A DNA stretch of 35,451 nt, from positions 1-35,451 of IMG/VR virus record IMGVR_UViG_3300035006_000009; one strand, 5' to 3'. A program made the position numbers and the translations under genes. The stretch comes from a virus. Lineage: Duplodnaviria; Caudoviricetes. This document shows positions 25,182-31,350 of the stretch, piece after piece; the stretch's first letter is position 1; each line of letters opens with the position of its first letter. Under the pieces are notes generated by a model, which searched no databases, was not told the origin of the DNA, and worked only from the letters and a program-made list of their open reading frames with translations.

Positions 25182-26675
25182 ATGATCGCAGGCGCCTACG
25201 ACTGGACCGACGACATGCTCAAGATCAAGAGCATGCAGAATAAGTTCCGCGACAGCTTCAACGGCACGGAGATCAACCCGGCGCGCTGGGAGATCGAGGC
25301 GACTGGAGGCGGCATCACGCACACCGTGGCAGAGGGCGCGGTGACCATCTCCACCGGCACGACGCTCGACGATGAGCTGACGCTCACCAGCCGGACCACC
25401 TTCACCATCCCGCTGCGGGTCATGGTGGCGGTGAACATGAGCCAGCGCATCGTCGGCCAGTCGGTCTGGCTCGAGCTGGTCAGCATCGATCCCACCACCG
25501 CCCAGCCGGACGGACGCAGCGCCGCGGCCTGGCGGCTGGATGGCGCCAGCGCGACGCTCGCGAACTACGAGGTGCAGAGCGAGGGCGCCCCGCGCCTCGG
25601 CAGCGCCTCGGGCAGCACCATCCCGACCACCGCGCCGGCCGGCTGGTCGGTGCTGGAGCTCGAGCCGACCAACGACGAATGCTACTTCCACGGCCGTCTG
25701 ATCGACACCACGGCGGCGCGCTCGAACTCCTATGTCCGCCACCAGCAGATCCCGGAGCCGAACGCGCTGTATCGTTTTCGGATCCGCGTACGGAACCGGC
25801 AGTTCATCAGCGGCATCTCGGCGGTGGCGAACAACGGCGGTGGCGCGGTGCGCATCACGCGGGCCGCGCATGGCTTTGCCACCAATGACGTGGTCACGGT
25901 CGCCGACGTCTCGGGCGTGCTGGGGGCGAATGGGACCTTCACGATCACGGTCATCGACGCGAACAGCTTTGACCTGGTCGGCTCGACCTTCACCGGCGCC
26001 TATCTGAACACCGGCTGGGCCTCGGTCAGCCGGAACCTGGCGCCAGTCTCGAACACGGACATCAAGGTCCAGTTCGTCACCATCGCGGATTATGCCGAGC
26101 TCACCACCGAGATCACCGCCGGCCGCGGCCAGTCGGTCGCTGGCCAGGGGCTGGGCGTGAACGTGCTCAGCACCATCCCACCGGCGGTCACGCCGGTGGG
26201 TGGCCAGGCGCGCAACACGGCCGGCGCCGTGCCGGTGCTGGCCGCCACTGGCTACTCGGCCAACCCGATTGCCGTCACGACGGCGCGTGGTGTGGATCTG
26301 CTGGCGACGCTGATCGGCGCGCTGGTCACCAAGCCTTACGCCATCCCCGAGGCTGACTGGCAATACGCTGCCGCCGCGGGCGGAATCATCAACACCACCG
26401 ACGTGGTGCTCCGTGCTGCGGCAGCGGCCGGAATCCGGAATTACGTCACCTCGATCGACATCCGCAACGCGCATCCGACGGTCGCGACCGAGGTGGTGCT
26501 CAAGGACGGCGCGACGGTGATCTGGCGGCAGCTGCTGCCGGCCGCGATGGCGGCCCCGGTGGAGATCACCTTTCCCACGCCGCTGCGCGGCACCGCCGCC
26601 ACGGCCATGAACGTCGCCTGCATCACCACCGGCGCGCAGGTTTACGTCAACGCGCAGGGCTTCGCCGCGCCGTAA
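25182..26675 (+). CDS. Beta-rich putative virion protein (head spike/decoration?) with an FCCH-like insert
   Basis: 497 aa rich in T/A/G/V; AVRITRAAHGFATNDVVTVADVSGVLGANGTFTITVIDANSFDL resembles E1-FCCH-like domains in phage structural proteins. Confidence 0.7.
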   Translation: MIAGAYDWTDDMLKIKSMQNKFRDSFNGTEINPARWEIEATGGGITHTVAEGAVTISTGTTLDDELTLTSRTTFTIPLRVMVAVNMSQRIVGQSVWLELVSIDPTTAQPDGRSAAAWRLDGASATLANYEVQSEGAPRLGSASGSTIPTTAPAGWSVLELEPTNDECYFHGRLIDTTAARSNSYVRHQQIPEPNALYRFRIRVRNRQFISGISAVANNGGGAVRITRAAHGFATNDVVTVADVSGVLGANGTFTITVIDANSFDLVGSTFTGAYLNTGWASVSRNLAPVSNTDIKVQFVTIADYAELTTEITAGRGQSVAGQGLGVNVLSTIPPAVTPVGGQARNTAGAVPVLAATGYSANPIAVTTARGVDLLATLIGALVTKPYAIPEADWQYAAAAGGIINTTDVVLRAAAAAGIRNYVTSIDIRNAHPTVATEVVLKDGATVIWRQLLPAAMAAPVEITFPTPLRGTAATAMNVACITTGAQVYVNAQGFAAP

Positions 26676-28877: not shown

Positions 28878-29225
28878 ATGCGCAACTATGTGCAGCCGGG
28901 CGACAGCCTGGCGCTCGCCGTCCCCTATGCCGGCGGCGTCACCTCCGGCCAGGGCGTCCTGGTCGGCGCGCTCTTCGGCGTGGCTGCCGTCGATGGCGTG
29001 CAGAACGCCGTCATCGAATGCCAGACCAAGGGTGTGTTCGACATCACCAAGGAGCCGGCGCTGGCGATCACCGCCGGCGCGCGCCTCTTCTGGGACAACA
29101 CCAACCGCCGCCTCACCACCACCGCCACAGGCAACTTCCAGGTGGGCCTCGCCACGGTGGCGGCGCTGGCCGCGGACGCCACCGTCCGCGCCGTGCTGCT
29201 GCGTGTCCCGGCGGCCGGCGCATGA
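28878..29225 (+). CDS. DUF2190-family capsid cement protein
   Basis: MRNYVQPG...GVTSGQGVLVGALFGVA...GVFDI; follows capsid gene. Confidence 0.9.
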   Translation: MRNYVQPGDSLALAVPYAGGVTSGQGVLVGALFGVAAVDGVQNAVIECQTKGVFDITKEPALAITAGARLFWDNTNRRLTTTATGNFQVGLATVAALAADATVRAVLLRVPAAGA

Positions 29226-29251
29226 GACACCCTGTGTCCAGCCTAATGTTG

Positions 29252-30457
29252 TCAGGCGGCGATTTTGACGGCGCTTGCGTGCTGGCTGGGGTCGTAGGTG
29301 TTGCCGTCTTTCCAGGCGCGCCAGAGCACTCGGACCCAAGCGCGTGCGAGGATGCGGATGGCATGGGGGTGCTTGCAGCCGCGTGCCTTTGCCTTGGCGT
29401 AGATGTCTGCGGCCCAGGCCGAGGCGTGTCGGGAGTTGTCGGCGAAGCGGGTGACGGCGAGGCGCAGGTTCTTGTTGCAGGCCCATCGGAAGACGACGCC
29501 GCGGGATTTGCCGGAGGCGTGTGTGACGGGGCAGACGCCGGCCTCGGCGGCGAGTTGGTCCTCGGTGGGGAAGCGTTCGCGGATGTTGCCGAGTTCGGCG
29601 AGGATCCCTGCTGCGCAGATACGGCCGGCGCGCGGGAAGGACATGACGATCCTGCCGTCGGGCAGTTCGGCGACGGCATGCTCGATGCGCGACGACAGCT
29701 TGGCGATCTCGGCGACGAGGCGTTCGAGGATGGCGGCCAGCGCGCGGGCGAGTTCACCCCTGGCGTCGGCCTCGGCGTCCTCGGCCAGGCCGGTGGGCGC
29801 GGCGCGGAGGCGGGCGAGCAATTCGGCGGCGGAGCGTCGGCCGCAATAGGCGTGCTGAGCCAGGAAGCTGGCCAGGCGTTTCTCGCCCAGGCGGTTGGCG
29901 CTGTCGGGCGTTGGATAGCGGCTGACGAAGGCGAGCGCGATCGGGCTGTCGATGGCGGCGAAGATGGCAGCAGCACCCGGCCAGAAGCCTTCGAGCAGGC
30001 TGCGCAGCTGGTTGGCGAGTGCGATGCGCTGGGCGACCAGGTCGTCGCGGCCGCGGACCAGCGCGCGGAGTGCCTTGATGTCGTCGGAGACGGGCATGAG
30101 GGGACGGAAGCGGTGCCCGTCGGTGCGCAGGATGTCGGCGAGCATGAAGGCGTCGCCCGGGTCGGACTTGCCGCCGGCGGCGCGATATCGAGGTCGGCAT
30201 GCTTTGACGACATTGGGGTGGATCGGGATCACCGGATGGCCCGCTTCGACGAGCGCATCGACGATGAGACCAGAGGGGCGCTCGATGGCGATGGGCAGTT
30301 CGGCCGGCGGGGCCACGCGCTTGAGGCAGGCCAGCATGTCGGCGAGGCCCGCCGCATCGTGGCTGACCTCGATACGGGTGACGAGCTGACCGGCGCCGTC
30401 GATGACGCAGACGGCATGGCTGGCGCCGCCCCAATCCAGACCTCCGTGAAATGGCAT
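29252..30457 (-). CDS. IS110-family transposase/bridge recombinase (401 aa)
   Basis: RuvC-like DEDD (GLDW, AIE, KSDPGDA); C-terminal Tnp domain with HASGKS serine; GAGGAG before ATG 30457. Confidence 0.97.
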   Translation of the reverse strand: MPFHGGLDWGGASHAVCVIDGAGQLVTRIEVSHDAAGLADMLACLKRVAPPAELPIAIERPSGLIVDALVEAGHPVIPIHPNVVKACRPRYRAAGGKSDPGDAFMLADILRTDGHRFRPLMPVSDDIKALRALVRGRDDLVAQRIALANQLRSLLEGFWPGAAAIFAAIDSPIALAFVSRYPTPDSANRLGEKRLASFLAQHAYCGRRSAAELLARLRAAPTGLAEDAEADARGELARALAAILERLVAEIAKLSSRIEHAVAELPDGRIVMSFPRAGRICAAGILAELGNIRERFPTEDQLAAEAGVCPVTHASGKSRGVVFRWACNKNLRLAVTRFADNSRHASAWAADIYAKAKARGCKHPHAIRILARAWVRVLWRAWKDGNTYDPSQHASAVKIAA

Positions 30458-30493
30458 GTGCTGGGCTCCTCGGGTTGCGATAGGCTCACCCAA

Positions 30494-30700
30494 GCCGGGA
30501 GATCACGCGGATCGCTCACTGACAGGCGCTCTGGCCGGCAAGCACTGGCGCTTCACCCTGTGGTCCGTCGGTATCTCCCGGCACCTGCCGCGCGGCGGGT
30601 CTCATGCGGGCCGTCCAGCGGCAAGCGACGCTGGCCGTCACGGCAGGGGCTCGGGCTGTCAGACACTACGCCGCTACGCGGCTCCGCGCCCAACAGCCCG
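30494..30700 (-). ncRNA. Predicted IS110 bridge RNA (5' stem-loop, target-binding loop, donor-binding loop)
   Basis: Stems 30652-30659/30693-30700, 30584-30596/30634-30647 and 30494-30503/30573-30582; internal loops match target and donor sequences; G-U pairs favour the minus strand. Confidence 0.85.
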
Positions 30701-30711
30701 AAGGTGCACCA

Positions 30712-31350
30712 GTGAGCCTCGATCCCAAGGCCACGCGGGGCTATCGCAATCGCAACCCGGGCAACATCGAGCACGTCTCGGCCAACAAGTGGCAGGGACT
30801 CGCCGAGCCGCCGTCGGACGGACGCTTCTGCCGCTTCACCAGCCACGAGTTCGGCATTCGCGCGCTCGCCGCGCTGCTGGTCACCTATCAGGACCGGCAC
30901 AAGCTGCGCACACCGCGGGCGATCATCGAGCGCTGGGCGCCCAAGGTGGAGAACGATACCGCGGCCTATGTCGCGGTGGTGGCGCGGCGGATTGGCGTCG
31001 GGCCGGATGATGCGATCGACCTGCATCGGCACGATCACCTCCGGCCGCTGGTGGAGGCGATCATCCACCATGAATGCGCCGGGCTCGCCTATCCGGCCGC
31101 GGTGATCGACCGGGCCCTCACGCTCGCCGGGGTGCCGCCTGCGCCGCCGGTGACGCTGCGGGAGGTGGCAGCCATCACCGGCACCGGCCGCGGCGCCGTG
31201 CTCGTTGGGGCGGCAGGCATCGCCACCGCCGTGGCGCAGGCCGCCCCCGCTATCCAGGCGCTGGGCACGCTCGCACCGGCGGTGGCCATCGCGGTCATCG
31301 TCGCCGCGGTAGTCGGCGTGCTCGCCTGGCGGCTGCGGCGCCCAGCATGA
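30712..31350 (+). CDS. Lysozyme-like protein (endolysin or virion lytic protein) with hydrophobic C-terminus
   Basis: RGYRNRNPGNI, GIRAL, IIERWAP..ENDT..Y, IIHHE motifs; start GTG partly supplied by the IS. Confidence 0.75.
   Translation: MSLDPKATRGYRNRNPGNIEHVSANKWQGLAEPPSDGRFCRFTSHEFGIRALAALLVTYQDRHKLRTPRAIIERWAPKVENDTAAYVAVVARRIGVGPDDAIDLHRHDHLRPLVEAIIHHECAGLAYPAAVIDRALTLAGVPPAPPVTLREVAAITGTGRGAVLVGAAGIATAVAQAAPAIQALGTLAPAVAIAVIVAAVVGVLAWRLRRPA

Follow-up and report, generated by a model that had tools for sequence, protein, structure and literature searches.

The closest described systems to the element studied here are the bridge recombinases of IS621 and ISCro4 (IS622), and bridge RNAs of their layout, in which a 5′ stem is followed by the target and donor loops, are already in print (Durrant 2024, PMC11208160; Hiraizumi 2024, PMC11208158; Perry 2025, 10.1101/2025.05.14.653916). 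Like them, the element carries its RNA in a long left end, uses a CT core and a 9-nt left target guide, has handshake guides in the same places, and encodes a recombinase of the DEDD-plus-serine type. Elsewhere, 32,190 bridge RNAs have been predicted (10.64898/2026.10.21.760802), and the terms “start codon” and “translational coupling” are absent from the accessible part of that source. No match to the element was found in the accessible supplementary files of PMC11208160, and the lineage may be among the published models. Related literature comprises PMC4607514, 10.1101/2025.10.25.684509, and 10.64898/2026.08.14.744561. In the open-access literature, we found neither a connection drawn between the guides of bridge RNAs and stop/start overlaps nor a description of a relay frame in an IS110 element that terminates on a replacement start; older papers on IS900 and IS901 may say more.

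IS900 and IS901 of Mycobacterium avium, which are reportedly treated in papers by Doran (1997) and Inglis (2003), resemble the present element in belonging to the IS110 family, in encoding a recombinase of about 400 aa, in targeting translation starts, and in having an antisense ORF across the whole element. As described in the accessible parts of PMC8141618 and PMC2942039, IS900 targets translation starts and carries a whole-length antisense ORF, hed, that depends on host signals. IS900 is reported to insert between the Shine–Dalgarno sequence and the start codon, whereas the element described here lies just behind the start codon; compared by description only, it also differs in being often located at a stop/start overlap and in that its antisense frame ends on a new start. 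The MIRUs of mycobacteria, which are short repeats, insert at start codons, and their internal ORF is linked to the gene behind it by a −4 coupling; a minimal effect on expression has been proposed for them (PMC12548453). The element shares the start-codon insertion and the −4 spacing with MIRUs but is 1,490 bp long and autonomous, with an intact recombinase gene; its antisense frame overlaps the recombinase gene and the guide RNA, and its target is written in a guide. In the IS1111-group seekRNA elements, the DEDD recombinase is likewise RNA-guided, but the RNA lies in a long right end, and the subterminal repeats are near-perfect and 11–13 bp long (PMC11187229).

The element was found in a prophage, a virus record of 35,451 bases (the window), in which capsid, head-decoration, head-closure, and tail genes are on the plus strand. 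It occupies positions 29227..30714 on the minus strand (1,488 bp, or 1,490 bp if one core is counted, the latter length being 2 mod 3) between two CT cores at 30715..30716 (left junction) and 29225..29226 (right junction). The recombinase gene (29252..30457, minus strand; 401 aa) encodes the DEDD_Tnp_IS110 and Transposase_20 domains (PF01548 and PF02371), and NF033542 also scored above its cutoff. The catalytic residues Asp8, Glu59, Asp99, Asp102, and Ser315 are intact and invariant in 43 of 43 aligned proteins; by motif and partial alignment, they correspond to Asp11, Glu60, Asp102, Asp105, and Ser241 of IS621 (PMC11208158). The AlphaFold model (pLDDT 91) has extra helices at about residues 160–225, and its best Foldseek matches are IS621 and ISCro4 (E value of 7e-13, TM scores of 0.62/0.75, 21% identity). 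Besides this low identity, the protein differs from that of IS621 in its length (401 aa versus about 326 aa, i.e., about 75 aa longer). The noncoding ends are 257 nt on the left, which contains the predicted RNA, and 25 nt on the right, and the subterminal repeat is short and imperfect with one covarying position. The long left end and short right end place the element in the IS110 group and not in the IS1111 group.

On the plus strand, the insertion lies between a head decoration/cement gene (28878..29225), whose TGA stays intact, and a gene of 212 aa (30712..31350; phrog_873, labelled endolysin), which is full length from a GTG of the element. A promoter and terminator scan of 29150–30800 found none. 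Two candidate further copies in the genome of the element itself were dropped, since one (G000) is the window itself and the other (L121) is the same DNA (100% identity over 4,203 nt). We also observed an ORF of 497 aa before the capsid gene (25182–26675) that has no PHROG family and only a subthreshold Pfam match (FCCH).

The empty target reconstructed in a previous sequence-only reading of this DNA was borne out. Among 80 related prophage loci, 79 align in one piece across the junction, five are identical over 24 nt, and none contains the element; three contigs of sequencing run X2 skip exactly 1,490 nt. Judged from the empty sites in the related prophages and run X2, the element was inserted at a short core and left the rest of the target unchanged. 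Of the 24 listed runs, 23 contain only a small share and were left out as habitat evidence. A circle junction was sought in four runs, all as contigs, and none was found. In the reconstructed junction, a −35-like TTGACA/TGGACA and a weak −10-like hexamer are spaced by 17–18 nt. Another locus (L163) was dropped as evidence of a circle junction, because a 26-nt unit is repeated on both sides of the element instead. This unit (L163:1153-1185 and 2705-2737) consists of the left-end sequence of the element itself and a short hairpin. Its length is 2 mod 3, it reads as an eight-codon frame that ends on a start codon, like a tiny MIRU, and the left target guide of L163 matches its end at eight of nine positions.

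The predicted bridge RNA lies on the minus strand at 30494..30702, with approximate ends. It consists of a 5′ stem-loop (30702-30650), a target-binding loop (about 30648-30583), and a donor-binding loop (30582-30494). The left-end region folds at z = −3.9. A consensus from 27 homologues, which were hand-picked for diversity from the fetched loci, gave the 5′ stem followed by two stems with internal loops (target loop and donor loop), i.e., an IS621-type structure. Two-sided changes were found in 28 of 45 named pairs, compared with 9–16 in slid structures, and none of 500 shuffles reached 28; these controls favor the structure, since it was derived from the same alignment. Rfam gave no match at E values up to 1. 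The layout and order proposed from the window alone are upheld by the fold and by the homologues, and we regard the predicted bridge RNA as very probably real. A 153-nt contig of RNA run X24, with a depth of 4.7 and three differences, falls on 30504-30656 and spans the bulk of the two guide loops in a close relative. No comparable piece on the recombinase gene was present among those listed, which is a weak hint of a discrete RNA in that relative.

Pairing was analyzed using 131 aligned loci, which gave 102 unique sites (88 with both ends) and 60 guide sets. The element ends were set by terminal motifs and alignment columns, independently of the guides, and five loci with an unparseable end (L244, L245, L249, L255, and L258) were excluded from the counts. 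All four guides covary with target and donor across 54–58 guide types (p = 0.0002), the match of the four guides to their own DNA exceeding that in each of 5,000 reassignments. When 30700-30480 was shuffled 20,000 times with dinucleotides preserved, the three exact matches of the window arose 310, 14, and 972 times, and no shuffle had all of them. Covariation strongly supports the prediction of a bridge RNA that has the IS621 layout and four legible guides. The sequences and positions given in the earlier reading are all present in the window, and the lengths of two guides had to be revised.

In the target loop, the left target guide AGCGTCGCT (30624..30632, minus strand; 9 nt) ends on the CT core, as had been read, but matches the window site at only six of nine positions; across the family, the match spreads from 3 to 9 and is 0.36–0.69 at positions −7 to −2. 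Such loose left-guide matches agree with half-match insertion (10.64898/2026.08.31.748434). The right target guide was originally taken as CGCATGAG (30608-30601), which indeed matches the right target at eight of eight positions in the window. Its outermost base does not covary (0.49 versus 0.45 shuffled) and was rejected, leaving a 7-nt guide, GCAUGAG (30601..30607, minus strand). The match of this guide is 0.87–1.00 from the core to +5 and is absent at +6, and 79 of 93 sites match at seven of seven positions. The earlier reading proposed right guides longer than in IS621; the natural right target guide of IS621 pairs over 4 nt, and a length of 7 nt falls inside the published range. The target-loop handshake guide (AC; 30599..30600, minus strand) is complementary to donor positions −1 and −2, with A opposite T in 55 of 56 types, and this pair shows no variation that could give a covariation signal.

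In the donor loop, the right donor guide CAGTGAG (30515..30521, minus strand; 7 nt) complements CTCACTG at seven of seven positions, in agreement with the earlier reading; its family match is 0.98–1.00, and in 53 of 54 types its last two bases are AG. The first base of the donor-loop handshake guide (CG; 30513..30514, minus strand) swaps between C and G with target position −1: complementarity holds in 51 of 52 types with two compensatory C/G swaps, and the second base is weaker. A left donor match of 9 nt had been read as CACAGGGTG (30562-30554), and it does equal 29236-29228 at nine of nine positions. The first of these bases is not a guide base, however, because the guide has C there in only 34 of 58 types while the donor is always C. 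The left donor guide is therefore ACAGGGUG (30554..30561, minus strand; 8 nt), which matches donor positions −9 to −2 (0.97–1.00) and covaries at −7, −4, and −3. At position −1, C, and T, the match falls to 0.41, 0.31, and 0.00 in 58 types; the guide stops 3 nt short of the end of the core and does not reach it. All four pairings of IS621 include the core (PMC11208160). Because the left donor guide matches −9 to −2 here, the left donor arm (29227..29235, minus strand) has 9 nt versus 7 nt in IS621, and with the right donor arm of 5 nt (30710..30714, minus strand), the donor site spans 16 bp instead of 14 bp. The left arm is preceded by the −35-like TGGACA (29240-29235) and by the imperfect subterminal inverted repeat.

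A circle that carries CT between the joined ends is the favored form, as suggested by the terminal AG of the right donor guide, the handshake bases, and the promoter-like spacing. The shifted guide could alternatively mean that the circle lacks CT, so that the donor would have the 7 + 2 + 5 geometry of IS621 with a GT core, and CT would be a 2-bp target duplication. The left donor guide does have the length of that of IS621, where 8 nt (A123–C130) pair next to an unpaired A131 (PMC11208158), and it sits in the IS621 register if GT is taken as the core. Against this, the AG of the right donor guide pairs with CT, the handshake bases fit an exchange at CT, the spacing of 17–18 nt is obtained across the CT-bearing junction, and IS621 chemistry proceeds without duplication; we consider the GT-core arrangement unlikely.

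On the plus strand, the crossover in the window falls in the ATGA overlap of the head-decoration gene and the phrog_873 gene; the sequence-only reading had the CT target right and overlooked this stop/start overlap. Of 55 element types (clusters at 97%), 47 have a right target guide that, viewed on the opposite strand to the recombinase, spells ATGAG or GTGAG; this number includes two with a damaged guide. Using a codon model trained on the genes of the window, 20 of the 39 classifiable RTG sites are stop/start overlaps compared with 6 of 227 other RTGAG sites that were taken from these flanks as controls, and start-like sites make up 26 of 39 compared with 20 of 227; a further 17 sites were too short to classify. 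The other 13 of the 39 are not start-like by the model (nine “stop only,” three “other,” and one internal Met), and two loci (L246 and L247) are not at annotated starts, their open frames having only 13 and 22 codons. A guide-matched enrichment control (100/412 overlaps) was discarded, because a single phage junction, present in about 80 copies, inflates its count.

The genes around the sites were compared with Pfam, using frames of at least 30 codons from 64 listed sites; duplicates of two repeat-targeting lineages, L121, and L134 were left out. Matches were obtained for 25 of 46 downstream frames, taken from the new start, and for 26 of 45 upstream frames, which run to the overlapped TGA; at 15 sites, both match. 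From the Pfam families, we take the gene pairs at sites to be pqiA–pqiB, kdsA–kdsB, virB8–virB9, virB9–virB10, trpC–moaC, and eutB–eutC, and one site lies before a dnaX-like gene. The kdsA–kdsB copy of Roseicella aquatilis NE82 is at locus L008. In a fresh set, the sites include hisS–aspS, scpA–scpB, pqiA–pqiB, and gatB, and 11 of 16 frames match Pfam. An unpublished genome (G713) underlies one of the 15 two-sided sites and one of the 55 types (L033), and the conclusions are independent of it. The 7-nt guide cannot see an overlap itself; what it reads is a word frequently present at overlaps, and selection may account for the remainder. Since the observed sites are survivors, targeting and selection are not separable here, and guide targeting and the survival of harmless insertions probably both shape the positions of the copies.

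On the strand opposite the recombinase, the host ATG opens an antisense “relay” frame (29222..30715, plus strand) that passes through the whole element in 497 stop-free codons. Like hed, this ORF spans the element without a start of its own. Its TGA (30713-30715) overlaps a GTG (30712-30714) in a −4 overlap; on the plus strand, the right donor arm supplies this GTG and part of the TGA. The GTG is located five bases behind a Shine–Dalgarno-like AAGGTG (30701-30706), and both lie in the left end of the element (30701..30714, plus strand). The downstream protein is complete with its start codon alone changed, and the TGA of the upstream gene is untouched. The motif is modest: −3.9 kcal/mol in the window, compared with a family mean of −5.1, −3.3 for shuffled sequences, and −6.1 in the host. 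The open frame and the replacement start, which are both present in the window, had not been seen in the sequence-only reading. The start-codon target, the open antisense frame, and the replacement start also distinguish the element from IS621.

It could be argued that this is an ordinary IS110 bridge element, that its start-codon sites are those where insertions at any RTGAG survived, and that the antisense frame is open merely as a consequence of GC-rich codons and shared ancestry. The elements are indeed related, so that the p values given here overstate independence, and some copies are not at gene starts. An antisense frame in register within a GC-rich gene is open by chance in about 56% of cases over 401 codons, as estimated from host genes. 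For this reason, the open frame inside the recombinase gene was rejected as evidence, and only the noncoding ends and the length rule were counted. Codon use cannot act on the noncoding left end, where the relay frame of 46 elements of length 2 mod 3 contains one stop, whereas the two remaining antisense frames have 43 and 72, and the expectation from shuffles is 53; in 25 distinct left ends of 257 nt, one codon column bears stops in the relay frame versus 8 and 10. Of 13 distinct left-end lengths, 10 are 2 mod 3 (p = 0.002). Several insertions and deletions have also kept the frame, and the length rule holds in copies shortened to 860 and 1,340 bp by internal deletion. Of 51 recombinase genes, 45 lack TTA, CTA, and TCA; there are 13 such codons in the others, 12 of them in elements that have lost the length rule.

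Losses of the frame follow retargeting. Of 47 start-guided types, 42 have a relay frame that stays open as far as a −4 or −1 overlap, compared with two of eight retargeted types (Fisher p = 0.0004). Two of the five shut start-guided types target repeats, two have frameshifted recombinases, and the fifth is L142. In a quickly computed maximum-likelihood tree built from 53 proteins, the label (open or shut) changes seven times, the open frame being lost about seven times, and the shut elements are scattered and are mostly retargeted, the guide no longer reading a start codon, or located in repeats. In the fresh set, which adds lengths from 1,340 to 1,646 and includes three copies of one element and an earlier locus dropped for its short flank (L269), 12 of the 13 sites that have both ends combine a length of 2 mod 3 with an open frame; in the remaining one, the recombinase gene is decayed. 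Three sites that had been dropped earlier were rechecked, and two have open frames and one is shut. We consider it improbable that survival and codon use account for these observations.

The antisense frame might instead make a functional protein, with start codons being targeted to express it (the “hed” reading of IS900); the title of the 1997 paper by Doran reportedly gives protein expression as the purpose of start targeting by IS900. The hed ORF does span the whole element without its own ribosome-binding site and start (PMC8141618), but a functional protein is very improbable here, given that the relay peptide has no Pfam match, its left-end part shows no codon-position pattern (0.141/0.157/0.160), the frame survives deletions of 150–630 bp and a 165-bp insertion, and its end invariably coincides with the new start codon, a feature that a free-standing protein could do without. 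The peptide encoded by the relay frame is probably junk.

Several variants of the element were also observed. In one sublineage (L007, L009, L127, L128, L130, L132, L133, L152, L155, and L158), the right end is about 165 nt longer behind the recombinase stop. This insert is conserved and hairpin-rich, and the antisense frame is kept where the guide still reads a start codon. Other extensions occur in L141 and L161. One genome (G005; L198, L201, L204, L206, and L208) contains internally deleted copies of 700–701 bp with an intact bridge RNA region beside full copies. All of these are in repeated palindromic sequence; in this lineage, the guide reads CTG, and the length rule is lost. A repeated intergenic sequence that resembles a hairpin is the target of at least 16 copies in G006 (L019-L026 and others) and L157, the left guides matching it almost perfectly, and the antisense frame in the G006 copies shuts after seven codons. 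In L038 and L129, the right target guide is interrupted by 15-nt insertions that resemble each other, which keep the frame (a multiple of three) and probably disable the guide. Another genome (G057; L260, L262, L264, and L291-L296) has twelve left ends with several guide sets, mostly truncated or at contig ends. Mini-elements were sought in 10 genomes by the end motif, and the loci examined were full copies or truncated remnants only.

From these sequence features, we consider it likely that this IS110 element uses its predicted bridge RNA to guide the recombinase to host start codons and that its opposite strand serves as a ribosome relay, which would keep the operon translated. By analogy with IS621, the circle would form first, and its joined ends would make a promoter from which the bridge RNA and recombinase are expressed. 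The target loop would then read 7 + 2 + 5 bases and the donor loop the joined ends; the pairings are shown by covariation, and recombination at CT would proceed as in IS621. In sequence, the guide reads RTG-AG on the opposite strand, so that the element is inserted backwards immediately after the start codon, which often overlaps the upstream stop. In the inserted copies, the upstream stop is kept, and the old start opens the stop-free frame, which ends on the new start with its Shine–Dalgarno-like motif. Ribosomes would thereby cover the inserted RNA, block Rho-dependent polarity over 1.5 kb, and reinitiate on the downstream gene; the basis of polarity and coupling is treated in PMC12548453. 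Host transcription here would run antisense to the bridge RNA and may damp the activity of the element, unlike in IS621, where excision is fed by read-through (PMC13626964).

The bridge RNA alone is ordinary; it is the start-codon targeting, the relay frame, and the shifted donor guide that set this member apart. The lineage, followed to about 50% identity, includes members in Alphaproteobacteria, Actinomycetota, Acidobacteriota, and other groups. We lean slightly toward the broader view that this is a widespread IS110 lineage with a bridge RNA fixed on operon stop/start overlaps, a whole-length relay, a 16-bp donor, and a guide shifted by two bases, that the hed ORF of IS900 is the same device, and that such recombinases could spread MIRU-like start-codon repeats. 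If so, such elements would insert before essential genes with little polar effect, as a translation-level counterpart of self-splicing elements. For tool building, the shifted donor guide and the 401-aa recombinase provide a candidate geometry, and the design suggests nonpolar insertion cassettes. If the relay works, three codes, namely, the recombinase, the guide RNA, and the open antisense frame, are overlaid on a 1.5-kb element, and the hed ORF of IS900, whose function has been unassigned since 1997, gains a testable purpose. A working relay would also explain how insertion sequences can live inside operons and before essential genes.
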